Below, piece after piece: positions 9,088 to 25,090 of a stretch of 32,000 nt of DNA. Within the stretch, counting starts at the first letter, position 1, and every line of letters starts with the position of its first letter. A program made the translations under genes and the position numbers. The stretch is from positions 1,837,760-1,869,759 of the forward strand of contig OZ257143.1 in NCBI GenBank assembly GCA_965279305.1, given 5' to 3'. The notes below the pieces were generated by a model. It saw only the letters and a program-made list of their open reading frames with translations. It was not told the DNA's origin and ran no database searches. This stretch comes from Gammaproteobacteria bacterium (lineage in GTDB: Bacteria > Pseudomonadota > Gammaproteobacteria > JBIOEC01).

Positions 9088-9619
9088 TGTATTGATAACG
9101 CTATTATTACTATTCGTACCTCTATCGGTATGGAGTGCAACTACCCCCAGTTCTGATCCCATTAGCTCTGATTTAACAAAGTTAGCGGCGGGCGAATTAG
9201 AAATTGATTCAGACAGCGCCGAAATTAATACACAAGAAGGCACTATTACATATTCCGGTAATGTGGTGGTTTCTCAAAAAACACGTAAGCTTACCGGAAA
9301 CACTTTAATTATTTATCGTAATGCCGCCGGCGATATTACCAAAGTGGTAATGAAAGGAACGCCAGTGCATTATAGAGGGCAAGTAGAAAACAAACCTGAT
9401 ATTATCAATGCTTACGCCAGCTCCATGGAATATGATTTACCCAATGAGCTACTCTATTTAAGAGGCAATGCACGCATAGAGCGCGATGGCGATATTTATC
9501 AAGCACCTGAAATACAGTATGATGTAAAAAGCGGAATAGCCAGCTCAGTGGCCACTCCTACAGGACGCACCCATATTACTATTGATCCAGAATCTATAAA
9601 AAATGAACCCAAGCAATAA
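9062..9619 (+). CDS. lptA: LPS export periplasmic protein LptA (alternative start 9071, MKIIHNV...)
   Basis: Signal peptide [23 protein letters not shown], OstA N-terminal-type beta-rich sequence, conserved synteny. Confidence 0.85.
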
Positions 9620-10343
9620 ACATACACTAAAAGCCGTTGCCCTAGGCAAACATTATAAAAAACGACAAGTGGTTAAAAACGTGTCGCTTGAAGTCAATAG
9701 CGGTGAAATTGTAGGTCTACTTGGGCCCAATGGTGCCGGTAAAACCACCTGCTTTTATATGGTAGTGGGTTTAGTGCCTTGCGATTCAGGCCAAGTATTT
9801 TTAGATGGCAAAGATATAACCTCTTTACCCATGCACTTAAGAGCGCGCTTAGGAATTGGTTATCTTCCCCAAGAGCCTTCTGTGTTCAGAAAACTTTCGG
9901 TATCCGACAATATTTTAGGCATTCTCGAAACCCGCGAAACGCTATCACAAGATGAGCGCATTGATATATTAGAAAACCTATTAGAAGAATTTAACCTCAA
10001 ACAAATTCGCGATAACTTAGGCATCAGCTTATCCGGTGGTGAACGCCGTCGTGTAGAAATTGCTAGAGCCATTGCTGCTAACCCTCAATTTATATTATTA
10101 GACGAGCCGTTTGCGGGTGTAGATCCTATCTCGGTTATTGATATTAAACGCATTATTCGTCAATTACAGCAACGCAAAATCGGTATTCTTATCACTGACC
10201 ATAATGTGAGAGAAACCTTAGATATCTGCGAACGCGCCTATATCGTAGGCCACGGTGAAATCCTTACCCATGGCGATCCTACGCATATTCTGGCTAACAA
10301 AAAAGTCCGCGAAATCTACCTGGGCGAAGAATTTAAGCTCTAG
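9603..10343 (+). CDS. lptB: LPS export ABC transporter ATPase LptB
   Basis: Walker [13 protein letters not shown] signature LSGGERRR, Walker [12 protein letters not shown], 246 aa. Confidence 0.95.
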
Positions 10344-10413
10344 CCTACCGCCCTCGCAAAGCCTGAGGTACCGGAGTATAATAAGATCATATCAACCAAG
10401 CACGGAGCGCAGT

Positions 10414-10692
10414 ATGGAAATTAATATTACCGGTCAACAATTTGAGCTAACCCCTGCCGTTAAAGCTTATGCTGAAGAAAAGCTAGGCAAAATAACCCAG
10501 CAGTTAGACCATATTATAAAAATTCATGTAGTTTTGAAAATAGAAAAAAATAGCAATATTGCTCATGCCGACTTACACGCTAAAGGCCATGATTTATATG
10601 CCAAAGCAGAAGCCGGTGATATGTATGCAGCCATCGATTTACTCGCTGAAAAGCTGCTGCAACAAGCACGTAAACTAAAAGATCAGCATTAA
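10414..10692 (+). CDS. hpf: Ribosome hibernation promoting factor (short HPF/YhbH type)
   Basis: MEINITGQQFELTPAVKAYAEEKL...HADLHAKG is typical of short HPF. ATG 10414 follows GGAGCGCAGT; the 10255 start in the ORF track overlaps lptB and adds non-homologous sequence. Confidence 0.85.
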   Translation: MEINITGQQFELTPAVKAYAEEKLGKITQQLDHIIKIHVVLKIEKNSNIAHADLHAKGHDLYAKAEAGDMYAAIDLLAEKLLQQARKLKDQH

Positions 10693-10699
10693 TATTATT

Positions 10700-11545
10700 A
10701 TGAAACTACTTATTGTTAGCGGACGCTCAGGATCAGGCAAAAGTATTTGCTTGCACTTGCTTGAAGATCTAGGCTTTTACTGCGTAGACAATTTGCCGCT
10801 CGATTTGTTTTTACATTTATGCGAACAAATCAAAGAGCAATATCCGCGAGTAGCCGTGAGCATTGATGCCCGTAGCTCTTCTACCTCTGACTTGAGTCGT
10901 TTCGATAGTATTTTAAAAGAAGCCAAAGCAAAAGGTTATAATCCAACGGTTTTATATTTAGATGCTAGCTCTAATATTTTATTACAACGCTATAGCGAAA
11001 CTCGCCGCAAACATCCGCTCACCAATGAAAAAACGCCATTAAAGGACGCGATTGAAGCTGAACGCAAATTATTAAGCCCTATTGCTAACGTAGCAGATAT
11101 TACTATTGATACCACAGAATTAAATAGCCAAGAGCTAGGCGCCTTATTGCGTGATCGCATCGTAGGACAATACAGTGGCCTCTCTATTTTATTTGAATCG
11201 TTTGGATATAAACACGGTATACCTGATGATGCGGATTATGTATTTGATATTCGCTGCTTGCCCAATCCTTATTGGCAACCAGGTATGAGAGATCTAAGCG
11301 GTTTAGATAAAACTGTAATTGAATTTTTAGATACGCAAGAAAGCGTGCAAGCTATGGAAAAAGATATTGAAACCTTCTTAGATAAATGGATCCCCGCATT
11401 TGCAAACGACAAACGTAGCTATTTAACCGTAGCCATTGGATGTACAGGCGGAAGACACCGTTCTGTATATTTAGTAGAGCGCTTAGCCAAACACTATAAA
11501 GAAAAATACCCCGGCATCCTCACCCGCCACCGCGACCTAAAATAA
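10700..11545 (+). CDS. rapZ: RNase adapter protein RapZ (YhbJ)
   Basis: P-loop VSGRSGSGKS, C-terminal CTGGRHRSV motif, 281 aa, conserved synteny. Confidence 0.93.
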   Translation: MKLLIVSGRSGSGKSICLHLLEDLGFYCVDNLPLDLFLHLCEQIKEQYPRVAVSIDARSSSTSDLSRFDSILKEAKAKGYNPTVLYLDASSNILLQRYSETRRKHPLTNEKTPLKDAIEAERKLLSPIANVADITIDTTELNSQELGALLRDRIVGQYSGLSILFESFGYKHGIPDDADYVFDIRCLPNPYWQPGMRDLSGLDKTVIEFLDTQESVQAMEKDIETFLDKWIPAFANDKRSYLTVAIGCTGGRHRSVYLVERLAKHYKEKYPGILTRHRDLK

Positions 11546-11553
11546 TATTATCT

Positions 11554-11617
11554 CGTCATTGCGAGCTTGCGAAGCAAGCGTGGCAATCCACATCAAAAAA
11601 TAGTATATTCAGTAAAC
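11554..11617 (+). repeat. REP-like hairpin element, copy 1 (CGTCATTGCGA[GCTTGC-GAA-GCAAGC]GTGGCAATCCACATC plus an AAAAT..ATTCAG..AAA tail)
   Basis: Outer arms ATTGC/GCAAT and a perfect 6-bp inner stem. An inverted homologous copy lies at 14712-14754. Confidence 0.8.
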
Positions 11618-11682
11618 TATCAGGTTGGGATGGGTAGGTAATTCGCCAAGAGCCGCATCTTGTTGAGTCTTGGTAAAATATT

Positions 11683-11985
11683 TTAGGCGGCTTTTGAGGA
11701 GATGGGTTTAATCCAAGAGAGTCCTTTTCCTGTGTGTTCAATTTCCCACAAATCGTAAGCACTTTGCATGCGTAGCAATACCGCAGGATCCACTCTCAAT
11801 AAGCGCCCTAACTTTGCCGCTAAATCTGGAGTTAAACGTAATCTTTCATTTAAAATACCTGATAAGGTATTGCGAGATACATCAATACGCTTGCTAATTT
11901 CTTGCTGGGTTAACTCTACCGCAGGCAAAATGATAATTCTTAAAAAAGCTCCTGGATGAGTGGGCTTTCTATTACTGGGCTTCAT
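11683..11985 (-). CDS. higA: HigA-family antitoxin / XRE-type HTH protein (no adjacent toxin gene)
   Basis: HPGAFLRIIILPAVELTQQEISKRIDVSRNTLSGILNERLRLTPDLAAKLGRLL matches the HigA/VapI HTH pattern (HPGE.L.E..L.P.g.s...lA..lgv....is.i.ngkr.it.d.AlrL...f). Confidence 0.8.
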   Translation of the reverse strand: MKPSNRKPTHPGAFLRIIILPAVELTQQEISKRIDVSRNTLSGILNERLRLTPDLAAKLGRLLRVDPAVLLRMQSAYDLWEIEHTGKGLSWIKPISSKAA

Positions 11986-12017
11986 TAGTGATAATCCTCT
12001 AAATCAATTATGATAAA

Positions 12018-12056
12018 ACTATACTGCCATTTATTGAAATGTGTCAACTTTTGACA
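12018..12056 (-). promoter_or_regulatory. Putative higA promoter with overlapping palindromic operator
   Basis: On the - strand: TTGACA (12047-12042), an 18-nt spacer, TATAGT (12023-12018), then the GAGGA RBS. The -35 box is half of the palindrome TGTCAA-CTT-TTGACA (12042-12056). Confidence 0.5.
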
Positions 12057-12093
12057 TGCAAAAATACTGATCATATCAGAATCTTCCGACCAG

Positions 12094-12164
12094 ACCCCGT
12101 CATTTTTCTCCTGAAAGATCTCTTTCTTTTCCCCATAGTGGGAGGAGAAAAAAGCGGGGTGACA
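12094..12164. repeat. Long imperfect hairpin element, copy A
   Basis: ACCCC (12094-98) pairs with GGGGT (12156-60) and TTTTTCTCC (12103-11) pairs with GGAGAAAAA (12144-52). The 20-mer GAGAAAAAAGCGGGGTGACA recurs at 17/20 identity at 14649-14668. Confidence 0.6.
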
Positions 12165-12190
12165 GATTAAGCTTTTGTAAATGTTTTAAA

Positions 12191-12911
12191 TTAGGGTGGT
12201 GGTCGCCTTATTACAAATGGATTTGGTTTTGGGGCTGGTCGATTAAAGTTTTTATCGACAAGAGCTCCTGCTTCCTTTCCTTCCAACGCAGATTCATCAT
12301 TGGTAAACGCTACGATCTTACGATTTAATTCATAAGGAAGCATCCAGAAAAAACCCGTATTAGTAGTAAGCGATTGATAAACCATACGAGCATTTTTTAT
12401 AACTTCCCCCCTATTCCTAATCTTATTCCGTGAAATCTCACCAATAACCTCTCGTCTTGTTGGTTTATTCAATGCAGGGGGATATACGGGGCATAATAAT
12501 CTTATGTCAGGCAAACTAGATTCCCATCCAACACATTGCTCAAATACACGTTCATCACGCATAATAAAATTAACAATCACTCTCGCTTGTTTTGGAAATT
12601 GCTGTAACACTTCCGTCAGTTCTATACCAGTGACATTGTTAATAAGACGTTTAAATTCACCTTTGACGCGAAGAAGGATCCGAATAGCCTGTGGTGCATA
12701 GTTAGGAGTAAGACACCCTAATGCGCATAGATCGTAATGATCCTTAATGATACGTTTAAATTCTGGAATATTATTAACGAGAAGATGAGTAAGAGGGCCA
12801 AAGATATTGTGGGAACCTTTGTTTTACAACATAGAAATCTGTATAGGATTTAAAAAGAGATTGAAAAGCACAGAGATTGCTTAAAGCTTCTTGTATGTCT
12901 TGTTCTTTCAT
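12191..12911 (-). pseudogene. F-box-motif protein gene split by a frameshift (frame 1 at 12911-12774, frame 2 open at 12823-12191)
   Basis: ATG 12911 has a strong RBS (GAGGAGTATCCATT-ATG) but the frame stops after 45 codons. The overlapping frame is open for 71 codons upstream of its first possible start (GTG 12610) with no start codon. It encodes MLPYELNRKIVAF and a Pro-rich tail. Confidence 0.55.
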
Positions 12912-13025
12912 AATGGATACTCCTCGTTATTATTAAAGGGACAACTTGAGTGTTCCATAAAATTAAAATAAAAACAAGCCACTTTTTTATAAAGCGATTA
13001 AAAAAATTCAATAAGGTTTTATTTA

Positions 13026-13901
13026 TTAGCTGGGGTTGGGGCCATATAAATAGTTAGATGACGGAGGTGCAGGAGAAGTCGCTCGAAGTTCACCTGGAGG
13101 AGAAGGTGGTGGTTTTGGAAATTCACTTTCAAGAGCGGCCTTTTGTTCTGCAGTTAAATCGATGATGTCTTGAATGGTGCGCTTCTTCTCTATAACTAAA
13201 TGTCCCCAATCTGTGATATTGAAAAACTGTATCATGTTGAGATCTTTAATTTGATCAAATGACAACACTCTACTTTTCATCAATGCGTGAATGTTTTCGT
13301 TATTAAAATTAGAAGATTGAGTACCTTTTAAATCGCTAATTTGCTTAAAGCACACTATTCCAGCGATTAGCATTCCTCGAAGCACTGAATTATCAATATG
13401 AAGTCCTGAATCCCAGCTTAAATTCTTAGCATCTGGCAGTGAGAGTATTCCGCTCGCAACAAAAGCCTTAATAGTGTGTAATCTCAGAGGCTCTTTACCA
13501 TCAGGAAAATTTCTCCTTCTAAGTTCTTGTTCAATTTCTGCAAGAATGCGTCTTTCCTCTTCAGTTATTTGACCCCGCATAATTCTTGAAACAGAATCAT
13601 TAGAAGTACCTGAAAGGACTTGTTCAAGAACCGTAAAAGCACGCTCCCACCCTTCTTGACCAAGAGTGCGATATAAAATCAGTCTTTTTTCACGTTCGTT
13701 TTTATATAATGCTATAACATCATTTAATGGTATTGTTCTGTATTCTGGTAATAAACGATCTCGATAAATTAAAGTATCCTCGCTAAGCGCTCTATGTGCT
13801 CTTGATACTTGAGCCAAACGACCACGTTCTTTATCGCCTAAATATAAACGTACTATTCTTAGAGCAAGTTCATAAGGCAAATTTCCGATAAGACCTGTCA
13901 T
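13026..13901 (-). CDS. F-box domain protein with four ~30-aa tandem repeats and a proline-rich C-terminus (eukaryotic-like effector candidate)
   Basis: The N-terminal LPYELALRIVRLYLGDKERGRLAQVSRAHRAL fits the F-box consensus LPxEhhxxIhxxL...L..V.+.W. Repeats are listed in findings. Confidence 0.75.
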   Translation of the reverse strand: MTGLIGNLPYELALRIVRLYLGDKERGRLAQVSRAHRALSEDTLIYRDRLLPEYRTIPLNDVIALYKNEREKRLILYRTLGQEGWERAFTVLEQVLSGTSNDSVSRIMRGQITEEERRILAEIEQELRRRNFPDGKEPLRLHTIKAFVASGILSLPDAKNLSWDSGLHIDNSVLRGMLIAGIVCFKQISDLKGTQSSNFNNENIHALMKSRVLSFDQIKDLNMIQFFNITDWGHLVIEKKRTIQDIIDLTAEQKAALESEFPKPPPSPPGELRATSPAPPSSNYLYGPNPS

Positions 13902-14131
13902 TTGAGTACCTTTAAACGATATAAATTAACAGCGCCCATTTTAAGCTATTTAAATAAATAATTCAAATTCGCCCCTTAAGTGGGCACTTACATGAACCAC
14001 GCCCCGCTAAATCGACCACTGAGAAACAAGGAGGGTGTCGCGTAACAGGAAGATTATTTTCTGAGTTTGGCCTATAATAGCTTATCTGCGCCATTAAACG
14101 TTAATGTTGTATTAGGGACAAAGAGACGATA

Positions 14132-14371
14132 ATGAGTCCAACAGTTTTTAAGTCAGGTTCATATAGATTTTACTTTTTTTCTAGGGAAGAGCCTAGAAAA
14201 CATGTACATGTTACATGTCCAGATGGGGAGGCAAAGTTTTGGATAGAGCCTATTGTTTCTTTAGCCACGTCTACTGGCTTATCAAAGAAACAACTAAAAG
14301 AAATTCAATCATTAGTGGAGAGTCATATCGATGAAATTAGCAAAGCGTGGAAAAAGCATTTCGGCAATTGA
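14132..14371 (+). CDS. DUF4160-family small protein
   Basis: 79 aa: SGSYRFYFFSREEPRKHVHV...GEAKFWIEP...ISKAWKKHF matches my memory of the DUF4160 pattern (G.yrf.fys.E...PHiHv...geaKfwl.P). Confidence 0.7.
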   Translation: MSPTVFKSGSYRFYFFSREEPRKHVHVTCPDGEAKFWIEPIVSLATSTGLSKKQLKEIQSLVESHIDEISKAWKKHFGN

Positions 14372-14588
14372 TATCAATCTCACACAGTTTGGTATGTGGT
14401 TATGCTTATCTGATGAAGAATTCTTTTTATCCTATGAAGACTATCCTTTCTTCAAAACAGCCAAAGTCAACGATATTTATCAGGTTGAACTACATCACAA
14501 AAATCATCTCTATTGGCCTAATTTGGATGTAGATTTGAGTGTGGATATTTTAAAAAATCCGCATCACTTCCCCTTATTAGCACATTGA
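14331..14588 (+). CDS. DUF2442-family small protein (overlaps the upstream gene by 41 nt)
   Basis: FLSYEDYPFFKTAKVNDIYQVELHHKNHLYWPNLDVDLSVDILKNPHHFPL matches the DUF2442 pattern (..fPwf..At..ql.nve.....l.Wp.lDvDls.d.l..Pe.fPL). Confidence 0.7.
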   Translation: MKLAKRGKSISAIDINLTQFGMWLCLSDEEFFLSYEDYPFFKTAKVNDIYQVELHHKNHLYWPNLDVDLSVDILKNPHHFPLLAH

Positions 14589-14614
14589 TGCATGTTTCAA
14601 ACCAATTTTTAGAT

Positions 14615-14668
14615 AGAACCGTACTTTTCTTTTATAGTTTTTTTGGTAAAGAAAAAAGAAGGGTGACA
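14615..14668. repeat. Hairpin element, copy B (shorter and degenerate, same orientation as copy A)
   Basis: The AGAACCGTACTTTTCTTT...AAAGAAAAAAGAAGGGTGACA arms pair (TTTTCTTT/AAAGAAAA). ATAGT and the 3' 20-mer are shared with copy A. Confidence 0.5.
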
Positions 14669-14690
14669 CACGGAGCATAATCAATCTAAT

Positions 14691-14803
14691 AAGGCTTTTC
14701 TGAATCATTTTGGATGTGGATTGCCGCGGCCGCTACGCGGCCTCGCAATGACGGAAAAGGTTTTCTGAATCATTTTAGAAATAAAGGGTTTCCGAATCGT
14801 TTT
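14691..14803 (-). repeat. REP-like hairpin element, copy 2 (14712-14754, inverted relative to copy 1), embedded in three ~20-bp direct repeats
   Basis: The reverse complement reads CCGTCATTGCGA[GGCCGC-GTA-GCGGCC]GCGGCAATCCACATCC. Direct repeats: AAGGCTTTTCTGAATCATTTT (14691-14711), AAGGTTTTCTGAATCATTTT (14757-14776), AAGGGTTTCCGAATCGTTTT (14784-14803). Confidence 0.8.
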
Positions 14804-15965
14804 AGTTCATGGAGAGGCGGAAACGATCGGAGACTACGCGTAGCCATCCACCCTTTTTAGCAGGTTCTAACGCGACTAGAGGCTTCTGATCAATCACTTT
14901 CTTATCTAGTTTCACTTCCACATTCCCGCACTGCTGCTTCTCAGCCACGGGCGCCTTCATACCATTATTCACATGAAACTCAAAATCCAGATTATCAAAC
15001 TCACCCTTAGGCACCGTCACATACCAATCATCCGGCACGCCTACTTCAATACGCTTCTTATCCCCCATCCAAATACGCGCCTTACTCACAGGTGTATAAG
15101 CATCTTGCAACTTACGGGTTTCATAATATTCAAAACCGTAGTCTAATAACTCTTGGCTTTGCTGAGTACGCGCTTTTACGCTCTTAGAACCCAGCACAAC
15201 CGCAATCAAGCGCATATCGTCACGTTTAGCAGATGATGCCAAGCAAAACTTAGCCGCGCGCGTATAGCCCGTTTTAATGCCATCTACGCTATCATCCCAC
15301 CACAACAATAAATTCGGATTACTTTTTCTCACACCTTTATACGTAAATGATTTTTTAGAATACTTAGGATAGGTTTCAGGAAAATCATTAATTAAAGCTC
15401 TAGCCAAAATAGCCAAATCCCGTGCACTACTATAATGATTGTCTTCGGTTAAACCATGAGGATTAGCAAAGCGGGTATTTTTCATGCCTAAGCGCCTAGC
15501 TTCACGATTCATTCTATTTACAAATTCATCTTCGCTGCCGGAAATAAATTCGGCTAGCGCCACGCTGGCATCATTCGCTGATTGAACTGAAACGCCATAC
15601 ACTAAATCTTCTACGGTAGGTTCATTGGTAGGTTTATGAAACATACGCACCCGTTCAACGCGCACGGCATTGTTAGTGATAGGAACGCGTTGGTTCTTTT
15701 TAATTCTGCCCGCTTTAATTTCTTGATCGACAATATAGGCGGTCATCATTTTAGTAATGCTAGCAGGATGAAGACGTTTGTCAGGATTTTGCTCGGCAAG
15801 CACGATGCCAGAATTAGCATCCACTAAAATATAGGAATACACATCAAAACGAGGTGCAGGAGGAACTTGATAGATTTCGTGCGCAGATGCAAAGCACGTA
15901 GATAAGGAAAAAGTGAAAAGCAATAATAAGCGAAAGCAAAGACGTTTCATTATCACGGCAGACAT
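14802..15965 (-). CDS. D-alanyl-D-alanine carboxypeptidase, PBP5/6 (DacA/DacC) family; alternative start 15950 (MKRLCF...)
   Basis: Signal peptide; SITKMMT (SxxK), SANDAS (SxN) and KTGYT (KTG) motifs; PBP5-type C-terminal domain. Confidence 0.9.
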   Translation of the reverse strand: MSAVIMKRLCFRLLLLFTFSLSTCFASAHEIYQVPPAPRFDVYSYILVDANSGIVLAEQNPDKRLHPASITKMMTAYIVDQEIKAGRIKKNQRVPITNNAVRVERVRMFHKPTNEPTVEDLVYGVSVQSANDASVALAEFISGSEDEFVNRMNREARRLGMKNTRFANPHGLTEDNHYSSARDLAILARALINDFPETYPKYSKKSFTYKGVRKSNPNLLLWWDDSVDGIKTGYTRAAKFCLASSAKRDDMRLIAVVLGSKSVKARTQQSQELLDYGFEYYETRKLQDAYTPVSKARIWMGDKKRIEVGVPDDWYVTVPKGEFDNLDFEFHVNNGMKAPVAEKQQCGNVEVKLDKKVIDQKPLVALEPAKKGGWLRVVSDRFRLSMN

Positions 15966-15975
15966 CCTTTGTCAT

Positions 15976-16018
15976 AGTATATTACTTTTATAATATACTA
16001 CTTTCTCGCCGAAGCAAG
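15976..16018 (-). other. Two small hairpins between rplQ and the carboxypeptidase gene
   Basis: On the - strand: CUUGC-UUCG-GCGAG (16018-16005), then the perfect AT-only inverted repeat AGTATATTA-N6-TAATATACT (15976-15999). Neither is followed by a U-run. Confidence 0.3.
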
Positions 16019-16039
16019 GTTCCTTAAGTGATAAGAACT

Positions 16040-16429
16040 CTAGGCGGTAGCGCTGTTAGCTTCAACCGCTTCTGCGCGATCTACCCACTCAATAATAGCA
16101 CGAGGTGCGCTATCACCAGGGCGGAAACCACATTTGATAATGCGAGTATATCCACCACGACGATTGGTTGAGCGAGGAGCTACCATTTCAAATAGTTTTT
16201 TAACAGCATCTTTGTCACGTAAGCGAGCAAATGCAATGCGGCGTTTCGCCACGTTGTCTTCTTTCGCCATGGTGATCAAAGGTTCAACAACACGACGTAA
16301 TTCTTTTGCTTTAGGCAAAGTAGTATTAATTATTTCATGCTGAAAAAATGATACAGCCATGTTACGAAACATAGCGGTACGATGTGATGAATTTCTATTC
16401 AGTTTACGCCCGGATTTGCGGTGACGCAT
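16040..16429 (-). CDS. rplQ: 50S ribosomal protein L17
   Basis: [24 protein letters not shown] is the canonical L17 N-terminus. Confidence 0.97.
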
Positions 16430-16457
16430 AACACTACTCTCCTAATAAGCCGCTGTA

Positions 16458-17450
16458 CTATTCGCCTTGGTTAGGCATTCCAGCTGGCGGCCAGTTATCA
16501 ATTTTCATACCAAGAGACAATCCCTTGCTATGTAACACTTCTTTAATTTCAGTTAGAGATTTTTTACCTAAATTAGGTGTTTTCAACAACTCAGCTTCGC
16601 TGCGTTGAATCAAATCACCAATATAATAAATATTCTCTGCTTTTAAACAATTTGCTGAACGCACTGTTAATTCTAAATCATCAACAGGACGCAACAAAAT
16701 CGGATCTAATTCACGAGATACTTTCAGAGAAGATTGACCTTCAATCGCTTCTAAATTAACAAACACAGATAACTGCTCTGCTAAAATAGTCGCTGCACGA
16801 CGGATCGCTTCTTCAGGATCAATCGTTCCGTTAGTTTCTAAATCAATAACCAATTTATCTAAGTCGGTACGTTGTTCTACACGTGCGCTCTCTACAGAGT
16901 ACGCTACTTTACGAACAGGAGAAAAAGAGGCATCCAAATACAAATGACCAATAGGACGCTCTGCTTCAGGATCTACAACGGTTTGCACCGGTTGGTATCC
17001 ACGGCCACGACGAACCACAATATTCATGGTCAAGTTAGCGTTAGGGTTGGTTAATGTAGCAATTAATTGTTGTGGGTTAATTAAACTCACACCATGATCT
17101 AATTGCACATCAGCGCCCATTACTAAACCTTGTCCACTGTGCTGAATTTTTAACTTAACTTCTTCGCGATTGTGTAAAACAAATGCAAGATTTTTTAAGT
17201 TCAACAAAATTTCAATAACGTCTTCTTTCACACCAGGAATGGTGCTGTACTCATGTAAAACGCCTTCGATTTCCGCTTCTACTACCGCACAACCTGGCAT
17301 AGAAGACAATAAAATACGACGTAAAGCATTACCTAGCGTATGACCAAATCCACGCTCTAGCGGCTCTAACACCACACGTGCATGGTAAACCCCTTGGCGT
17401 TGAACATCAACAATACGAGGTTTTAAAAACTGAGTAACGTTACTTAGCAT
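16458..17450 (-). CDS. rpoA: DNA-directed RNA polymerase alpha subunit
   Basis: 330 aa; LKPRIVDV...[17 protein letters not shown] and C-terminal [22 protein letters not shown]. Confidence 0.97.
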
Positions 17451-17495
17451 GCCATTTTCTCCAGAAGAATAATATTTGCTCTCTATTAATGAGGA

Positions 17496-17906
17496 TTAGA
17501 TTCGTCTCTCTTTGGGCGGACGGCAACCATTATGTGGTACCCGTGTAACGTCCCATAAAGCTTCAATTGTAAAACCGCAAGCTGCTAATCCACGAATAGC
17601 ATATTCACGACCGGGTCCAGGACCTTCCACGTAAACTTCCAACTTCTTGAGGCCATACTCTTTTGCAATTTGCCCAGCATCTTCAGCTGCAATTTTTGCA
17701 GCGTAAGGAGTACTTTTGCGGGCACCTTTAAACTTCATTTTACCTGGGGTAGACCAAGACAAGGTGTCCCCAAATCGATCGGTAATAGTAATAACGGTGT
17801 TGTTAAACGCCGCTTTAATATGAGCAATACCGTCTACAACCTGACGTTTCTTCGCCTTTTTGCGAACTACTGCACCTTTTGCACTGGATGGTTTTGCAAC
17901 TGCCAT
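17496..17906 (-). CDS. rpsK: 30S ribosomal protein S11
   Basis: [18 protein letters not shown]...[12 protein letters not shown]. Confidence 0.97.
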
Positions 17907-17920
17907 ATTAATTCCTTCAA

Positions 17921-18307
17921 TTATCCTTTAGCGACTTTGCTTTCGGTCTTTATTTGCGGCCCACCACGTTTACGACCACGACGGGTTTTAGCGTTTGTGT
18001 GAGTGCGTTGACCATGTACGGGAAGACCACGAATATGGCGTAAGCCTTCATACGTTTTTAAATCGACTTTACGCTTAATCGCCATTGAAATCTGGCGGCG
18101 TAAATCACCTTCCATATCATAAGCGGCAGCTGATTTACGTAGCGCCTCTTCTTGTTCAAATGTTAATTGGTTCACCTTGGTGGTAGGCGCTACACCGGTC
18201 GCTTCGCAAATTTTGCGAGCGCGAGTAGGTCCGATACCAAACACATAGGTTAACGCTATAATCACATGTTTGTTTGCTGGCAGGTTAATTCCCGCGATAC
18301 GCAGCAT
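17921..18307 (-). CDS. rpsM: 30S ribosomal protein S13
   Basis: [24 protein letters not shown]...[19 protein letters not shown]. Confidence 0.97.
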
Positions 18308-18375
18308 ATTTTACTCCCCAATTACTCTATAAATTCTGTTTTTATATTCGTACAAAAAAGCCTCAGCGGCCACAT

Positions 18376-18404
18376 AGCATACGTGGAAACGGGCTTTGGG
18401 TCAA
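18376..18404 (-). promoter_or_regulatory. Candidate alpha-operon promoter (TTGACC-N17-TATGCT)
   Basis: On the - strand: TTGACC at 18404-18399 and TATGCT at 18381-18376, inside the 116-bp rpmJ-rpsM spacer. Confidence 0.35.
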
Positions 18405-18423
18405 GCCTATCTCCGCCCTTGGG

Positions 18424-18537
18424 TTACCCCTGGCGTTGCTTATGCTTAGCATTTTCGCATATCACCATCACGTTACTTCTGCGACGGATAACACGGCATT
18501 TTGTACACATTTTCTTAACGGAAGCACGTACTTTCAT
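18424..18537 (-). CDS. rpmJ: 50S ribosomal protein L36 (not in the ORF track; too short)
   Basis: Hand translation gives [37 protein letters not shown]. The RBS GAGGTGAGGA lies upstream. CxxC...C....H marks the zinc-ribbon form. Confidence 0.95.
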
Positions 18538-18549
18538 AATATCCTCACC

Positions 18550-18612
18550 TCAATAATACCCTAGGCTGCATGCCTCCAAGGCTACATACCCCCAAGGTTA
18601 CATACCCAAGGG
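18550..18612 (-). repeat. Four tandem ~16-bp units spanning the secY stop codon and the secY-rpmJ spacer
   Basis: On the - strand: CCTTGGGTATGTAA / CCTTGGGGGTATGTAG / CCTTGGAGGCATGCAG / CCTAGGGTATTATTGA. Confidence 0.7.
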
Positions 18613-19908
18613 CCCGCCCTTCATATTGGCTTTTTTCATCAACGACTGATAACGGGCTGACATTAAGTGGGTCTGTACTTGGGCAATAAAGTCCATCACC
18701 ACCACTACAATAATCAGCAAGGAGGTACCACCAAAATAAAACGGTACGTTCCAACCCATAATCAACAATTCAGGCATCAATGCGACACCTATCAGATAAA
18801 AAGCACCGAACAAGGTAAGCCTTGTCATCACACCATCGATATAAGAAGCGGTTTGCTGACCTGGTCTTATTCCAGGAATAAACGCACCATTCTTCTTTAA
18901 ATTCTCAGCCGTATCCCTTGGGTTATAAACCAAGGCGGTATAAAAGAATGCAAAAAATAAGATCGCAAGAGCAAACAATACTAAATACAACGGTTGCCCT
19001 GGCGATAACATTTGGCTTAAACCAATAAGCCAGCTGTTTCCTTCCCCTACTCCAAAAAATTCGGTCAGAGTAGCTGGAAATAAAATAATACTAGAAGCAA
19101 AAATAGGCGGAATAACTCCGGCCATATTGATCTTCAACGGCAAATGACTGGTTTGACCACCCATCATTTTGCGGCCTTGTTGGCGCTGCGCATAATTCAC
19201 AGTAATGCGTCGCTGCCCTCGCTCGATGAAAACCACAAATGCTATCACTAACACCACACCTACTATTAAAAGTAAAAGCACGATGGGCAGCAATTGTCCT
19301 TCACGAACTTGCTCAATAGTGTTGCCTAATGCAGCGGGTAAACCTGCCGCAATACCGGTGAAAATAATAATGGATATGCCATTACCAATTCCACGCTCTG
19401 TGATCTGCTCACCTAACCACATTAAAAACATGGTACCGGTAACCAAGGTCACAACCACTACTACATAAAAACCAAAACCGGTAAACAATGCTACACCGGA
19501 ACTCGCCAAATATTTTGCAAAGCCTAAGCCTTGAAATGTCGCTAAACCTAAAGTGGCATAACGCGTAATTTGACTAATTTTACGGCGGCCTTGTTCGCCT
19601 TCTTTTTTATACTGTTCTAGTGCAGGTGACACCATGGTCAACAACTGAACCACAATAGAAGCCGAGATATAAGGCATAATGCCTAGTGCAAATAACGTAA
19701 AACGTTCTAATGCACCACCCGAAAACATATTAAACAAACCTAAAATGGTATTTTGCTGCTGAGAAAATAATTCAGCTAAGCTTACCGGATCAATACCTGG
19801 AACGGGTATATGCGCTCCGATGCGGTAAACTAAAATAGCACCAAACACAAACAACAAGCGACGTTTGAGTTCGCCTAATCCATTAAGCATGCCTAGTTGT
19901 GTGGCCAT
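18598..19908 (-). CDS. secY: Preprotein translocase subunit SecY
   Basis: 436 aa, 10 TM segments, ...[16 protein letters not shown]..., position between rplO and rpmJ. Confidence 0.97.
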
Positions 19909-19929
19909 AGTGATAAGGCTCGTTAGTTT

Positions 19930-20364
19930 CTATTCTTCAATGCTTCCGCCGGCTTGGAGAATGGCTTCACGTGCGCCCTTCGTTACTCCTAACCCTTTTA
20001 ATTTTACTGCTTTAGTTAAAGTACCACGACTAATAACTTTCGCACGTTTCATATAGTGAGGAATGATATTGGCTGTCATTAATGCGGCCAAATCAATTAC
20101 ATCTACATCTAATTTATTTAATTGTTCTAAACGCACTTCTGCGGTGTGCTTAGATACGCGAGAAGTAAAACCAAATTTTGGTAAACGTCTGTGTAAAGGA
20201 GTTTGTCCACCTTCAAAGCCAGCAGGAATGCTAGAGCCAGAACGTGCTGTTTGGCCTTTACCACCACGACCACCTGTTTTACCTAAACCACTACCTTGCC
20301 CACGACCTAAACGACGTTTTTCTTTTTTAGCACCGGGGTTGGGTTTTAAAGTATTTAATCTCAT
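19930..20364 (-). CDS. rplO: 50S ribosomal protein L15
   Basis: [38 protein letters not shown]. Confidence 0.97.
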
Positions 20365-20558
20365 TATCCTTGCTCCTCAACCTTTAGCAAATAGCTGATC
20401 TTGTTAACCATTCCGCGGTTTTCTGGTGTATCAATACGTTCAACCACTTGATTAATTTTACGTAAACCCAAACCTATTAAGCACTTTTTGTGAAGTGGCA
20501 AAATAGAAATAGGACTCTTAATTAATTTAATTCTTAACATTTTTTTGGACTTACTCAT
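20364..20558 (-). CDS. rpmD: 50S ribosomal protein L30
   Basis: 64 aa; [10 protein letters not shown]...[10 protein letters not shown]...TPENRGM; position between rpsE and rplO. Confidence 0.93.
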
Positions 20559-21082
20559 TAGGAAGCCTCTTTTAATACAGGTAAATCTTCAACCGATTTG
20601 CCACGTTTAGCAGCAATCGATTCAGGGGATGACATGGAAGCGAGTCCTTTAATCGTAGCCCAAACCACGTTAACAGGATTGCTAGAGCCAATACATTTTG
20701 ACAATACGTTATGAACGCCTACTACTTCAAATACAGCGCGCATTGCTCCGCCCGCGATAATACCAGTACCTTCGCCAGCAGGAAGCATAACTACTTTAGA
20801 AGCGCCATGACGTCCGTAAACTTTATGAAACAAAGTATGGCTATTCAATTGGATGCGAACCATGCGTCTGCGCGCATCTTGCATTGCTTTTTGAATAGCC
20901 GCAGGTACTTCGCGTGATTTACCACGACCTACACCTACGCGACCTTTGCCATCACCTACAACAACCAGTGCCGCAAAACCAAATATACGTCCACCTTTTA
21001 CTACTTTAGCAGTACGAGTCACTGTTACCAGCTTCTCTATCATGCCATCAGTTGTTGTGCCTTCATCAAATGTTTTAGCCAT
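20558..21082 (-). CDS. rpsE: 30S ribosomal protein S5
   Basis: [44 protein letters not shown]. Confidence 0.97.
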
Positions 21083-21102
21083 TGTATAACCTTAATAAGT
21101 CC

Positions 21103-21468
21103 TTAGAATTCCAATCCGCCTTCACGTGCCGCATCTGCTAATGCAGATACTCGGCCATGAAACCTAAAACCAGAACGATCAAAAGCCACTTTTTTAATAC
21201 CTGCTTTTGTCGCACGCTCAGCAATTAATTTGCCGATAGCTTCAGCTGCTGTTTTGTTTCCAGTCGCTTTTAATTGTTTACGTAATTCTGGTTCAACAGT
21301 AGAAGCAGACACTAGCACTTTATCAGCACCTTCGTGTTGCTCTATCACCTGAGCATAAATATGCTGCGGTGTACGATGAACCGTTAATTTAATTGCATTT
21401 AGCTCACGAATTTTGCAGCGAGTACGAGTACCGCGGCGAATTCTGGCTTGTTTTTTAGATGACTTCAT
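21103..21468 (-). CDS. rplR: 50S ribosomal protein L18
   Basis: [10 protein letters not shown]...[15 protein letters not shown]...[26 protein letters not shown]. Confidence 0.97.
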
Positions 21469-21497
21469 CGCGCTTCTTCCTATTCTATTCTCTTATC

Positions 21498-22034
21498 TTA
21501 CTTTTTCTTCGTTTCTTTATGTTTAACATGTTCATCGCTATAACGTACGCCTTTACCTTTATAAGGTTCAGGAGAACGAATGCTACGAATATTGGCAGCC
21601 ACTTGGCCTACTAATTGTCTATCGATACCATGAATCACTACTTGTGTTTGGGTAGGTGTTTCAATAGTAATTCCTTTAGGAACATCAAAAACCACCGGGT
21701 GTGAAAAACCCAAAGACAAATTCACTTTGTTACCTTGCGCTGCTGCACGATAACCTACACCAATTAAGGTTAATTCTTTTTTGAAACCTGCGGTAACACC
21801 GGTTACCATATTTTGAGCTAATGCGCGCATAGTTCCCGCAATCGCTAATGATTGCTTTGCTTTACTCTTAGGAGCAAAACGCAACACATTTTCTTCAAAT
21901 TTTACTTCCACATCACCAGGTAGTGCTGTGCTAATAGTGCCTTTATTACCGGTAATGGTTAACAAAGTTGGCTCAAGCAATACTTTAACACCGCTTGGCA
22001 CACTAATGGGTTTTCCTGAAATACGAGTAGACAT
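21498..22034 (-). CDS. rplF: 50S ribosomal protein L6
   Basis: 178 aa; IGVGYRA...LSLGFSHPV...PEPYKGKGVRY. Confidence 0.97.
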   Translation of the reverse strand: MSTRISGKPISVPSGVKVLLEPTLLTITGNKGTISTALPGDVEVKFEENVLRFAPKSKAKQSLAIAGTMRALAQNMVTGVTAGFKKELTLIGVGYRAAAQGNKVNLSLGFSHPVVFDVPKGITIETPTQTQVVIHGIDRQLVGQVAANIRSIRSPEPYKGKGVRYSDEHVKHKETKKK

Positions 22035-22049
22035 TTTCTTTACCTTATC

Positions 22050-22448
22050 CTATGCCACTAAACAAATCACTTCACCACCCTGTCTCGTTTTGCGAGCTTG
22101 GTGATCCGTTATCATCCCTTTAGAGGTTGATACAATATAAATACCTAAACCGCCACGCACTTTAGGTAATTTTTCCACTGATTTATAAGAACGTAAACCC
22201 GGACGGCTTACACGCTTAATTTCAGAAATAACACCTTTGCCTTCGTAGTATTTTAATACCACGTTCAATACGGTTTTATTTCCATCCATCTTTTTTAATG
22301 CGTAAGAAGTAATATAACCTTCGTCTTTTAAAACGCGGGCAATTTCGTTCTTCACTTTTGAGCCAGGCATAGTTACATCAACGTGTCCTGCACTTTGTGC
22401 ATTACGGATACTGGTTAACATGCTTGCTATCGGATCTGTCATACTCAT
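22050..22448 (-). CDS. rpsH: 30S ribosomal protein S8
   Basis: [17 protein letters not shown]...RPGLRSY...GGEVICLVA. Confidence 0.97.
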
Positions 22449-22475
22449 AATTTCATAATCCTATCTAAATAATTT

Positions 22476-22781
22476 TTACCAGCTTGATTTTACTAATCCG
22501 GGTATTTCACCGCGCATTGCTAGTTCGCGTAACTTGCTGCGACCTAAACCAAACTTACTATAAACACCACGTGGACGACCCGTGATAGCGCAGCGATTAC
22601 GCATACGAACACGGCTAGCATCACGAGGAAAATCTTGCAACTTCATCATCGCATCTTCTTTTTCTTGGAAAGAAGAGGTTTGATCTTTTACTATTTTTAT
22701 TAACTCTGCGCGCTGAGTTGCATATTTTGCAACAATTTCCTTGCGGCGCTTCTCACGCAATTTCATACACAATTTTGACAT
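22476..22781 (-). CDS. rpsN: 30S ribosomal protein S14 (long, non-zinc form)
   Basis: [42 protein letters not shown] prefer ATG 22781 (GAGGA plus a 7-nt spacer) over the TTG at 22787. Confidence 0.95.
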
Positions 22782-22798
22782 GCACAATTCCTCAATAT

Positions 22799-23347
22799 TT
22801 ATCTTTCTTTAAATGGAAACTTGAAAGCATCTAACAATGCTCTCGCTTCAGCATCAGTACGTGCAGTGGTATTAATAGTAATATCCATACCGCGTACCGC
22901 ATCAATTTTATCGTAATCAATTTCAGGAGCTACGATTTGCTCTTTAATACCTAATGTATAGTTTCCACGACCATCAAACGCCCGTGGAGTAAAACCGCGG
23001 AAGTCACGAATACGAGGAATATAAATACTCACTAATCTATCTAAGTATTCGTACATACGTTGACGACGTAAGGTTACTTTGCAACCAATCGGCCAACCTT
23101 CACGAATTTTGAAACCCGCTACTGATTTACGCGCTAAGTTAACCACAGGTTTTTGACCTGAAATTTTGGTTAAATCATCAATAACGAAATCCATTACTTT
23201 TTTATCGTTAACAGATTCGCCCGCACCTACGTTCAGTACGATCTTTTTAATACGAGGTACTTGCATAGGAGAAGTGTAATTAAACTTCTTCATCAACGCA
23301 GGAACCACTTCTTTTGTGTAATATTCTTGTAAACGTGCTGTGCTCAT
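22799..23347 (-). CDS. rplE: 50S ribosomal protein L5
   Basis: [20 protein letters not shown]...[12 protein letters not shown]... Confidence 0.97.
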
Positions 23348-23364
23348 TTTATCTTCTACCTACA

Positions 23365-23721
23365 TTAAGCTTTTTGATTAACGGGTTTGCCAGAGCTCTT
23401 AAACACTCTAACTTTTTTACCCTTTTCTATTTTATATCCAACGCGATCTGCTTTTCCTGTAGCTTCGTTAAAAATAGCTACTTTGCAAATAGGCATAGGC
23501 ATATCTTTTGGTTTCACTCCGCCTTCTTCGTTTGCACGAGGATTTGGGCGTACGTGTTTTTTCACTTGATTAATATTTTGTACGATTACCATTCCTTCAA
23601 TCGGATCAACATCAATAATTTGACCACGACGACCTTTATCACGACCTGCCAATACGATGACTTCGTCACCTTTATGCAGTTTGCGATTTAGGGGTTCTTT
23701 TTTCTTTATCATTTTTGCCAT
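23365..23721 (-). CDS. rplX: 50S ribosomal protein L24
   Basis: KGDEVIVLAGRDKGRRGQI...ATGKADRVGYKIEKGKKVRVFKSSG; the N-terminus is slightly extended compared with E. coli. Confidence 0.95.
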   Translation of the reverse strand: MAKMIKKKEPLNRKLHKGDEVIVLAGRDKGRRGQIIDVDPIEGMVIVQNINQVKKHVRPNPRANEEGGVKPKDMPMPICKVAIFNEATGKADRVGYKIEKGKKVRVFKSSGKPVNQKA

Positions 23722-23758
23722 AATAAATACCTAGTATAAATTCCTAACGGTTCTTTTG

Positions 23759-24136
23759 TTATAGCACTTCAGGTGCTAATGAAATAATTTTCATAAAGTT
23801 TTCTTTGCCGCCTGTACGTAACTCTCTGGTCACAGGTCCAAATATGCGAGTACCAATTGGTTGTAATTGGCCATTCAATAAAACAGCCGCATTGCTGTCA
23901 AAACGAATCAAAGAGCCATCAGCGCGACGGACACCATGTTTAGTTCTTACCACAACAGCGTTCAATACTTCACCTTTTTTCACTTTGCCACGAGGGCTAG
24001 CTTCTTTAACAGTGACTTTAATCACGTCGCCAATACCTGCATAACGACGCTTAGAACCGCCTAACACCTTAATACACAGTACCTTACGAGCACCCGTGTT
24101 ATCGGCTACCTCTAAGATGCTTTCTACTTGAATCAT
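23759..24136 (-). CDS. rplN: 50S ribosomal protein L14
   Basis: [28 protein letters not shown]...SLAPEVL. ATG 24136 follows GGAGCAAGTT; the track start at 24148 adds 4 residues. Confidence 0.96.
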
Positions 24137-24159
24137 AACTTGCTCCAACTAGCTTCATC

Positions 24160-24207
24160 GGGCTGAAAACAGCCCAACATTATATCAAAAATACCGTCTG
24201 ACGGCTA
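24160..24207 (-). promoter_or_regulatory. Candidate spc-operon promoter (extended -10 TGATATAAT) and leader hairpin GGGCTG-TTTT-CAGCCC
   Basis: On the - strand: TGATATAAT at 24187-24179, a weak -35 TAGCCG at 24207-24202, and a perfect 6-bp hairpin at 24175-24160 before the rplN RBS. Confidence 0.4.
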
Positions 24208-24223
24208 TGCGCCGTATGCCCTA

Positions 24224-24475
24224 TTAGGCGCCAATAACCTCACTCAACTTCCAGAATTTCTTCTTAGAAATCGGTCTAGAATGAGCAATTTTAACCCATT
24301 GACCTTCTTTTGCCACGCTGTCTTCATCGTGAACATAATACTTGGTACGTGTGCGAACATACTTACCATAAACAGGATGAGGCTCTTTGCGCTCAGACTG
24401 AACGATGATAGTTTTTTGCATCTTACCTGCACTAATCACTTGGCCAGTTACTAGGCGTTGTGTTGTTTCACTCAT
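24224..24475 (-). CDS. rpsQ: 30S ribosomal protein S17
   Basis: LVTGQVISAGKMQKTIIVQSERKEPHPVYGKYVRTRTKYYVHDE. Confidence 0.97.
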   Translation of the reverse strand: MSETTQRLVTGQVISAGKMQKTIIVQSERKEPHPVYGKYVRTRTKYYVHDEDSVAKEGQWVKIAHSRPISKKKFWKLSEVIGA

Positions 24476-24663
24476 GGCTTAACCTTTTCATTTAATAAAG
24501 TATTGATACGAGCAATGCGAAGCTTAGCAGCACCAAACAAATGGTTTTTATGCATTTGTCCGCTGGCTCTTTGCATGCGCAAGTTAAAAATTTCGCGGTG
24601 AGCCGCTTCTAATTCGCTTTGTAGCTTATCTGCTGATAGCTTACGTAGTTCTTTAATAGTCAT
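24472..24663 (-). CDS. rpmC: 50S ribosomal protein L29
   Basis: 63 aa; ELRKLSADKLQSELEAAHREIFNLRMQ. Confidence 0.95.
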   Translation of the reverse strand: MTIKELRKLSADKLQSELEAAHREIFNLRMQRASGQMHKNHLFGAAKLRIARINTLLNEKVKP

Positions 24664-25076
24664 TACATCACCGTACGTTTTTCAAATACTGTTCTTACTG
24701 ATAATTTAGCGGCTGCTAATGCAAACGCCTCTCTTGCCACTTCTTCAGGAACTCCACCCATTTCATATAACACTTTACCGGGCTGAACCATGGCTACCCA
24801 ATATTCCACGTTACCTTTACCTTTACCTTGACGAACTTCTAAAGGTTTTTGTGTAATCGGTTTATCTGGGAATATTCGAATCCAAATTTTACCATCGCGT
24901 TTGATGAAACGGCTGATGGCACGACGTGCAGCTTCGATTTCTCTAGCTGAAATACGTCCACGAGTAACCGCTTTCAATCCATATTCCCCGAAAGCGATCG
25001 AGCTGCCTCGAAGAGCCATTCCAGGATTGCGACCTTTATGTTGTTTTCTAAATTTTGTACGTTTTGGCTGCAACAT
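24663..25076 (-). CDS. rplP: 50S ribosomal protein L16
   Basis: [17 protein letters not shown]... Confidence 0.97.
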
Positions 25077-25090
25077 TTAACAAACTCCTA

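Follow-up and report, generated by a model that had tools for sequence, protein, structure and literature searches.

The 32,000-nucleotide stretch analysed here (hereafter the window) covers positions 1,837,760 to 1,869,759 of contig OZ257143.1 (1,869,759 bp), from assembly GCA_965279305.1 of an uncultured gammaproteobacterium. Two large gene blocks converge in this window, and the 3.2-kb segment placed between them (hereafter the islet) carries five accessory genes: a solitary higA, a frameshift-split orphan gene, a gene encoding an F-box protein and a DUF4160/DUF2442 pair. The bacterium is probably host-associated and its barely sampled lineage is probably intracellular. The interval in which the lpt-hpf-rapZ and ribosomal-protein/rpoA-rplQ operons end tail to tail is, in our judgement, a likely hotspot of gene turnover that is flanked by core genes and free of mobile genetic elements (MGE). 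Essential transcription does not cross this 3'-3' junction, and lineages, even near-conspecific strains, carry different modules in it.

Gene organization of the interval

The window has a G+C content of ~40%. Among the open reading frames (ORF) of at least 90 aa, all those between 103 and 11545 lie on the + strand, with the sole exception of a YdfG-like short-chain dehydrogenase/reductase (SDR) at 4160-4930 on the - strand, whose top NCBIfam match is YdfG (229 bits, under the equivalog cut-off). The real genes from 14802 to 31968 are uniformly on the - strand. The + strand genes are, in order, the end of nadB, sdhE, a CptA-like gene, a ygfZ-like gene, a gene for a 506-aa ankyrin-repeat protein, a type III polyketide synthase (PKS)-like gene, a methyltransferase gene, kdsD, kdsC, lptC, lptA, lptB, hpf and rapZ. 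The - strand genes are dac, rplQ, rpoA, rpsK, rpsM, secY and the remaining ribosomal-protein cluster.

The two borders of the islet differ in depth. On the left, rapZ is the final gene of the kdsD-kdsC-lptC-lptA-lptB-hpf-rapZ block, which is also found in the related contigs L006-L010 and L132-L134. On the right, dac is present in L006, L011 and L135 and is not found in the interval of L007, L008, L010 or a JGI contig with an empty site. The rplQ gene adjoins the variable interval in all relatives whose RapZ is at least 69% identical, but not at 57% identity (L136). Since dac is missing in the more distant relatives, the conserved deep junction is rapZ|rplQ.

No tRNA or tmRNA was found in the 32-kb window, and Pfam and NCBIfam scans of the islet ORFs gave no integrase or transposase domains. 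The features of a classical genomic island or integrative element (an integrase, a tRNA or other att site, flanking direct repeats) were not found; att-like direct repeats were not detected, nor was any direct repeat or target-site duplication in the sequence outside the pair of repetitive extragenic palindromic (REP)-like hairpins described below. A search of 11300-15000 against Rfam gave no hit, even at E up to 1.

A preliminary description of this DNA, made from the sequence alone, had proposed a converging-strand arrangement, a segment without integrase, transposase or tRNA, an orphan higA, a DUF4160/DUF2442 pair and inverted REP-like hairpins bracketing the segment; all of these points agree with the present data. 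The interval from rapZ to dac that it delimited is correct for the left border and for close relatives, whereas at depth the right border is rplQ. Small repeats are placed between the genes. The bracketing hairpin is referred to as REP-A and a second family as D2; a third motif is written as TTTCTGAATCATTTT, TTTCTGAAnCATTTT or TTTCTGAA. The features are listed in Table 1.

Table 1. Features of the islet and its borders, in window coordinates.
Feature	Position	Strand	Evidence or detail
rapZ, left conserved flank	10700..11545	+	Pfam RapZ-like_N 5.9e-44, PapZ_C 5.1e-45
Left REP-A hairpin, between convergent rapZ and higA	11554..11599	+	RNA fold -13.8 kcal/mol
Solitary higA antitoxin / Xre-type helix-turn-helix regulator	11683..11985	-	TIGR02607 78.2 bits (cut-off 47.7); HTH_3 4.2e-8
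D2 hairpin and adjoining AAGCTTAAT, downstream of split gene	12094..12175		DNA fold -19.1 kcal/mol, z = -4.75
Frameshift-split orphan gene	12191..12911	-	45-aa ORF 12774-12911 and start-less frame-0 ORF 12191-12820
F-box protein, 291 aa: N-terminal F-box, helical repeat domain, Pro-rich tail	13026..13901	-	F-box-like 28.7 bits (cut-off 24.3)
Doubtful degenerate D2-arm copy, spacer between F-box gene and DUF4160	14022..14040	+	74% identity to reference copy; no stable fold
DUF4160 protein, DhiT-superfamily putative toxin	14132..14371	+	DUF4160 2.3e-16
DUF2442 protein, DhiA-superfamily putative antitoxin	14331..14588	+	DUF2442 2.1e-11
Second good D2 copy, downstream of DUF2442	14620..14668	+	Weak fold (z = -0.5); kept in L135
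Right REP-A and three TTTCTGAAnCATTTT copies	14691..14806		Hairpin 14708-14753, CGTC tag on - strand, fold -17.2 kcal/mol
dac, penicillin-binding protein 5/6-type D-Ala-D-Ala carboxypeptidase, right flank in close relatives	14802..15965	-	Peptidase_S11 1.7e-81, PBP5_C
rplQ, deep conserved right flank	16040..16429	-	Ribosomal_L17; last gene of ribosomal-protein/rpoA block

Variation of the interval among relatives and strains

The interval was compared in eleven related contigs found via RapZ homologues, the close ones all coming from outside NCBI. NCBI proteins in the RapZ search reach ~55% identity at most, exact look-ups of the window's RapZ and RpsK gave no hit, and a RapZ scan of genome contigs gave, among the matches listed, only distant ones (at most 52%). 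In the relatives with 69-83% RapZ identity the same blocks converge, and the rapZ-to-rplQ interval goes from 59 bp to ~8.3 kb. Six interval states exist among these relatives, the window included. In the JGI contig the site is empty, with rapZ and rplQ 59 bp apart. L006 contains a 211-aa orphan and dac; L007 contains five genes, including one for a pentapeptide protein; L010 encodes a hybrid histidine kinase, a nonribosomal peptide synthetase (NRPS) and two more proteins; and L008 encodes HPr, an ABC protein, a histidine kinase and others. Synteny is lost at 57% RapZ identity (L136). The five cargo proteins of the window have no tblastn match in the relatives' loci, L011 alone sharing any of them. 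Comparison of the interval gave both an empty site and alternative cargo, and its content is not conserved beyond the species level.

Two near-conspecific strains, S1 (sample SRR28248352, contigs L132 and L011) and S2 (samples ERR3281022/3, contigs L133-L135), have flanks ~93-99% identical to those of the window, yet their islet modules differ. Over 5.1 kb of its right flank, S1 matches the window at 96.8% of nucleotides (RpoA 99.7%, Dac 99%), and it keeps the split gene (89-94% aa identity) and the F-box gene (71%). The DUF4160/DUF2442 pair and right REP are replaced there by a 347-aa orphan, the left REP and higA by one of 380 aa placed directly after rapZ. In S2, the left side contains a shorter REP, with a D2 copy, instead of higA, no more than 15 nt beyond it. 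Its right side (L135, 95.7% identity), which begins at the window-equivalent position 14059, contains the DUF4160/DUF2442 pair, D2, the third motif, a REP, the motif again and dac. Three mosaic states are present among near-conspecific strains; judged from these alignments, the islet combines three or more modules that vary independently.

Five breakpoints were compared, four between the window and S1 and one between the window and S2. Three of them abut hairpin repeats. The breakpoint with S2 falls at the end of the left REP. One breakpoint with S1 falls near dac at the dac-proximal TTTCTGAA motif, with D2 on one side and REP-A on the other. Another falls at the AAGCTTAAT downstream of the split gene; past this shared piece the two strains part, one continuing into D2 and the other into a different palindrome. 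The remaining two, 13 nt upstream of the F-box ATG and within the last 7 nt of rapZ, are free of repeats.

Hairpin repeats in the spacers

The two REP-A arms form an inverted pair of 46 nt with 80% complementarity. Their core, GTCATTGCGAG-N16-GGCAATCC, occurs exactly twice in the 32 kb, at the two ends of the islet, with 0.00 copies expected by chance. Both copies share the ATTGC/GCAAT outer stem; the inner stem differs but is self-complementary. The left copy is composed of a CGTC tag, the outer stem, the variable inner stem CTTGC-GAA-GCAAG and a CCA tail. A 9-nt-shorter version occupies the same position in S2 (L133/L134), and none is present in S1 (L132).

The right REP-A is surrounded by the third motif: the TTTCTGAATCATTTT form has three occurrences in total, all around this hairpin, and the TTTCTGAAnCATTTT copies are at 14691-14714, 14756-14779 and 14783-14806, the last adjoining the dac stop codon. 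The dac-proximal copy is kept in L006, L011 and L135. L135 shows the motif-REP-motif arrangement, L006 has other palindromes between the motif copies, and REP-A is missing from this place in L011. In all close relatives a ~20-nt TTTCTGAAnCATTTT stands beside the dac stop codon and is duplicated on either side of an inserted palindrome. The insert is REP-A in the window and in S2 (L135, motif region ~640-715), and a 115-nt palindrome with another hairpin in L006 (2503-2805); S1 contains a single TTTCTGAAnCATTTT copy and no insert. The duplicated TTTCTGAAnCATTTT may represent a long target duplication, a site favoured for insertion or a binding site for a protein.

The good D2 copies are at 12146-12164 and 14650-14668 (two found vs 0.02 expected). 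The second repeat family that had been proposed inside the islet is thus real for two copies, while the third remains doubtful. The 32 nt at 12144-12175, containing D2 and the adjoining AAGCTTAAT, are 100% identical to L011 5150-5181, which lies beside dac in that strain. An additional D2 copy follows the left REP in L133/L134.

The same spacers of the relatives contain other palindromes: CCTCTCCCC-TTGT-GGGAGAGG, GC-rich hairpins that are nested, and a perfect 20-bp inverted repeat whose arms stand 75 nt apart (L011 5150-5260 and 8138-8178; L006 2469-2740). The CCTCTCCC palindrome is a further repeat element besides REP-A, D2 and the TTTCTGAA motif. The Logan contigs of S1 and S2 terminate within or near such repeats, as expected if these elements are multi-copy.

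Outside this lineage, the REP-A pattern occurs on at least 120 metagenome contigs (loci L012-L131) from many habitats, with G+C contents of 31-74%. Among the matches listed there are 154 copies with 112 distinct centres, all ending in CGY; the ends (GTCATTGCGAG, CGY, GGCAATCC) are constant around a variable palindrome, and a perfect stem of at least 4 bp is present in 54% of the centres vs 18% of shuffled centres. Tandem arrays also occur, with 15 copies on L094. No recurrent protein is found beside the 154 listed copies on the 120 contigs, which leaves no transposase candidate. REP-A has no Rfam match, and a literature search for the core string gave only unrelated papers.

The closest described class is the CGTC-tagged REP superfamily (Di Nocera et al. 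2013), which includes dRS3 of Neisseria and RPE-4/6 of Rickettsia and has also been reported in Coxiella burnetii (PMC3733652). Its members lie for the most part downstream of genes, in spacers that separate convergent or unidirectional ORFs, and have no known dedicated transposase; the published families CGTC-1 to CGTC-4 have stems of 8-9 bp and loops of 4-5 nt (PMC3733652). Both REP-A copies read CGTC-ATTGC...GCAAT-CCA, with a tag at one end, an AT-starting stem and a CCA tail. They lie downstream of genes between convergent ORFs (rapZ/higA and DUF2442/dac), vary between strains and have no transposase nearby. On the other hand, REP-A has a 5-bp outer stem, an internal loop, a 5-6 bp inner stem and a 3-nt loop, and the two copies seen in the 32 kb are 3.1 kb apart and form no compact dimer. 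By its stem-loop geometry, REP-A would be at most a variant within this superfamily. As the class prefers gene 3' ends between convergent ORFs, the bracketing of the islet is expected at two 3'-3' junctions.

Cargo genes

The 291-aa F-box protein is the only islet gene product that is securely eukaryote-like. Its AlphaFold model (pLDDT 82) is all-helical, and the best PDB matches of the N-terminus are the F-boxes of Fbw7, FBXW8, Fbx4 and Skp2 in complexes with Skp1. Superposition on 2ovq_B covers 44 columns with a root-mean-square deviation of 1.2 and 41% identity; the match is good locally but, at an E of ~1 for this small domain, not significant. The repeat domain has no Pfam or PDB match. 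A word-indexed search of 5.8 billion proteins gave a single close relative, the S1 allele. A HMMER search of 1.8 billion representatives gave 18 distant relatives with 25-32% identity; Pfam F-boxes occur in two of the ten scanned, and ~36-aa repeats of the IRAYIASGQLTIEQVL type in all five that were read. The few recorded sources include a gammaproteobacterial metagenome-assembled genome and a Diplonema transcriptome.

The F-box gene diverges faster than its surroundings. Its product is 71% identical to that of L011 (6402-7286), with RpoA, RplQ and Dac 99-100% identical between the same strains. The nonsynonymous rate (dN) against S1 is 0.152 and the ratio to the synonymous rate (dN/dS) is 0.61, compared with a dN of 0.000-0.007 in the neighbours; the amino acid sequence is changing 20 to more than 100 times faster than theirs. 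The top dN/dS values, 0.7-0.84, are mostly in the repeat domain. This pattern suggests diversifying or strongly relaxed selection, or the import of a divergent allele.

Bacterial F-box effectors reportedly include AnkB/LegU1/LicA of Legionella, VirF of Agrobacterium and the GALA proteins of Ralstonia. The islet protein resembles them in its N-terminal F-box above the Pfam cut-off, locally superposable on Skp1-bound eukaryotic F-boxes, in a repeat domain that could bind substrates and in its fast evolution. It differs from them in lacking detectable sequence similarity, in its ~36-aa helical repeat units and in being a candidate known from sequence and model. It is a good effector candidate from an undescribed repeat family and probably recruits host Skp1 as a secreted effector.

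The second gene, which had also been described as carrying an F-box motif, is less clear. One extra A in GTAAAACAAAGG splits it, and the same split is found in S1 (L011 7401-8121). Its downstream part, 12191-12610, carries the C-terminal F-box-like motif LPYELNRKIV; the match to PRANC (E=0.023, 15.5 bits) is under the 25.8 cut-off, hhalign against the F-box profile gives 2.6% probability and the single-sequence AlphaFold model has a pLDDT of 35. The claim of two F-box-motif genes consequently stands for 13026-13901, and at 12191-12610 reduces to a motif. Its only match in the 5.8 billion proteins searched is the 123-aa call made for this gene in the source genome. The 209 codons after the shift, including 70 without a start codon, evolve like a translated frame: their dN/dS is 0.39 (p=0.005), compared with 0.81 and 2.74 in the other two frames, and the substitutions by codon position are 15/6/22. 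The gene could be a case of +1 recoding, of internal initiation at a rare start or of a very recent pseudogene.

The remaining three genes are of the toxin-antitoxin (TA) type. The HigA domain is above the TIGR02607 cut-off, as in HigBA systems; unlike these, higB is missing, since no - strand ORF of at least 40 aa is present in the 205 bp upstream of higA (11986-12190), where a hairpin repeat lies. A strong promoter-like site at 12047-12018 (score 11/12) precedes higA. The gene is found in the window strain only, with no tblastn match in any relative compared, and its product is likely a solitary HigA-type regulator.

The DUF4160 and DUF2442 genes, as listed, overlap by 41 nt. S2 (L135) has the same toxin-first pair, and the DUF4160 gene is absent from S1 (L011). 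In Dickeya dadantii, a DUF4160/DUF2442 pair has been validated experimentally as a TA system of type II, DhiTA (PMC8198452). The islet pair has the DhiTA order, DUF4160 first and DUF2442 second, overlapping, and plasmid copies share this architecture: such pairs occur on 32 plasmid records, the best match being 55.7% in Aeromonas salmonicida. However, the DUF4160 protein scores 19.9 bits against the DhiT equivalog NF048015, far under the cut-off of 100. By domain content and order the two genes are likely a DhiTA-type pair, selfish and resisting loss.

Possible mechanisms of gene turnover

Many hotspots of horizontal gene transfer (HGT) contain no mobile elements and recombine at the flanking core genes (Oliveira, Touchon & Rocha 2017, PMC5635113). 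A minimal mobile element of Neisseria consists of different whole-gene cassettes between two conserved genes (Saunders & Snyder 2002; Snyder et al. 2007; cited in PMC3082526). The present interval shares with these systems the conserved core flanks, the strain-specific whole-gene cassettes, the high turnover and the lack of integrase, transposase or tRNA. It differs in that it is known from sequence comparison, flank recombination and natural transformation belonging to those systems, in that the right flank shifts with depth (dac in close relatives, rplQ deeper) and in that the host is uncultured. The empty site, the five other cargo sets and the near-conspecific strains differing by module agree with the earlier idea of accessory-gene turnover without classical mobile-element genes. 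The locus would be a clean instance of a core-flanked hotspot turning over between strains, of a known kind that leaves current concepts unchanged.

Modules would enter and leave this hotspot mainly via homologous recombination, both in the conserved flanking genes and in internal segments that the strains share. The exchange would follow DNA transfer between related strains, with occasional illegitimate joins. The small hairpin repeats (the CGTC-tagged REP, D2, the TTTCTGAA motif and the other palindromes of the relatives) would colonise the spacers, since such elements favour gene 3' ends. They may supply microhomology or insertion targets and would be residents of the interval, not its engine.

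Several observations weigh against a core-flanked hotspot driven by flank recombination. The divergence of the flanks shows no rise toward the islet, and among the flank genes only dac has a somewhat raised synonymous rate (0.17 vs 0.02-0.09). The G+C of the islet, 0.35-0.42, is near that of the flanks, so that a foreign origin is not shown by composition. A hairpin repeat lies at every module boundary of the window and none in the within-module spacer 12912-13025, and the identical 32-nt D2 piece stands at different junctions in two strains; both facts fit a more active role of the repeats. In addition, the S1 and S2 contigs end inside the islet, so their gene orders are seen in part.

The preliminary description had gone further in two respects, proposing that host-interaction genes accumulate here and that they do so by repeat-mediated recombination. 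The first is weak: the islet has one secure F-box gene, other lineages carry an NRPS, histidine kinases, a pentapeptide protein and orphans, and the gene for the 506-aa ankyrin-repeat protein lies 9 kb off, outside the islet. The second is unproven. The hairpins would in that case be recombination substrates, either as dispersed copies or as sites for a hairpin-specific enzyme, in a cassette system devoid of integrase and transposase and loosely comparable to pdif modules or integrons. All four module boundaries of the window have hairpin repeats, the three repeat-abutting breakpoints fall at them, and the 32-nt piece of D2 and AAGCTTAAT is identical at two different junctions. On the other hand, the bracketing is expected from the position, S1 lacks both REPs, two of the five breakpoints are repeat-free and the genes stand in both orientations. 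REPs of the CGTC class normally lie at gene 3' ends and have no known dedicated transposase (PMC3733652), and no recurrent protein accompanies the metagenomic copies. Moreover, deeper relatives with a variable interval have no such border repeats, and the differences at the repeat positions are explicable by simple gain or loss of a repeat. Recombination at the repeats is consequently rather unlikely as the cause of the turnover.

A stronger form of this idea is still less probable. The hairpin families (the CGTC-type REP, D2 and others) would then be the junction sites of an integrase- and transposase-free cassette system that shuttles single-gene modules, effector and TA genes among them, at permissive 3'-3' junctions of a host-associated bacterium. 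It would resemble pdif modules or integron cassettes in its working, with other sites and a hypothetical enzyme. If such a system existed, the duplication of TTTCTGAA around palindrome insertions in three genomes would be the footprint of its mechanism.

The pdif modules of Acinetobacter plasmids and the integron arrays are small modules, often TA, with short structured sites between them and no mobility genes of their own. The islet is similar in its small modules, its TA genes and its short structured sites. It differs in having no XerC/D-like site, no intI among the islet ORFs and genes in both orientations. An integron- or pdif-type system was set aside: there is no integrase among the islet ORFs, no Xer-like site and no attC-type cores by eye. 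A REP-bounded composite element was ruled out by the lack of target duplication, by S1 without both REPs and by the independently varying modules.

The islet might also be what decay has left of one or several classical mobile elements (integrative element, plasmid or prophage), with the integrase lost and the TA genes surviving, an origin to which we give little credence. HigA and the DUF4160/DUF2442 pair are of gene types typical of addiction modules, such pairs are also found on plasmids, and higA has lost its toxin partner. However, no integrase, transposase, att-like direct repeat or tRNA is present, and the modules vary independently between strains, not as one block. The turnover is also recent, given flanks 93-99% identical, and a dead element would not drive it (an argument of PMC5635113).

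An ancestral locus shaped by differential loss only, or an effect of the replication terminus, is very improbable: the islet composition is not clearly unlike the flanks and the gene blocks converge as at a terminus, but an empty site exists and no cargo is common to lineages beyond the species level, so that a loss-only history would call for an ancestral interval of implausible size. A terminus was discounted, as no dif-like site turns up when up to 3 mismatches to the core of E. coli are allowed and the GC skew is negative on both sides, without a sign change.

Other variable features of the left flank

The 506-aa ankyrin-repeat protein (2608-4128, + strand; Ank_2 8.9e-24) is encoded by a further eukaryote-like gene located in a second variable stretch, which contains no REP-A copy. 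The syntenic region of L007 reads nadB-sdhE-cptA-like-ygfZ-SDR-kdsD. It is devoid of the ankyrin gene and of the type III PKS-like and methyltransferase genes (4955-6921), and the orientation of the SDR is reversed.

In the lineage of the window, lptB is followed directly by hpf and rapZ (9603-11545), and rpoN, ptsN and an HPr-like gene are missing there. Elsewhere, the cluster includes rpoN in L136, and ptsN and HPr in L008.

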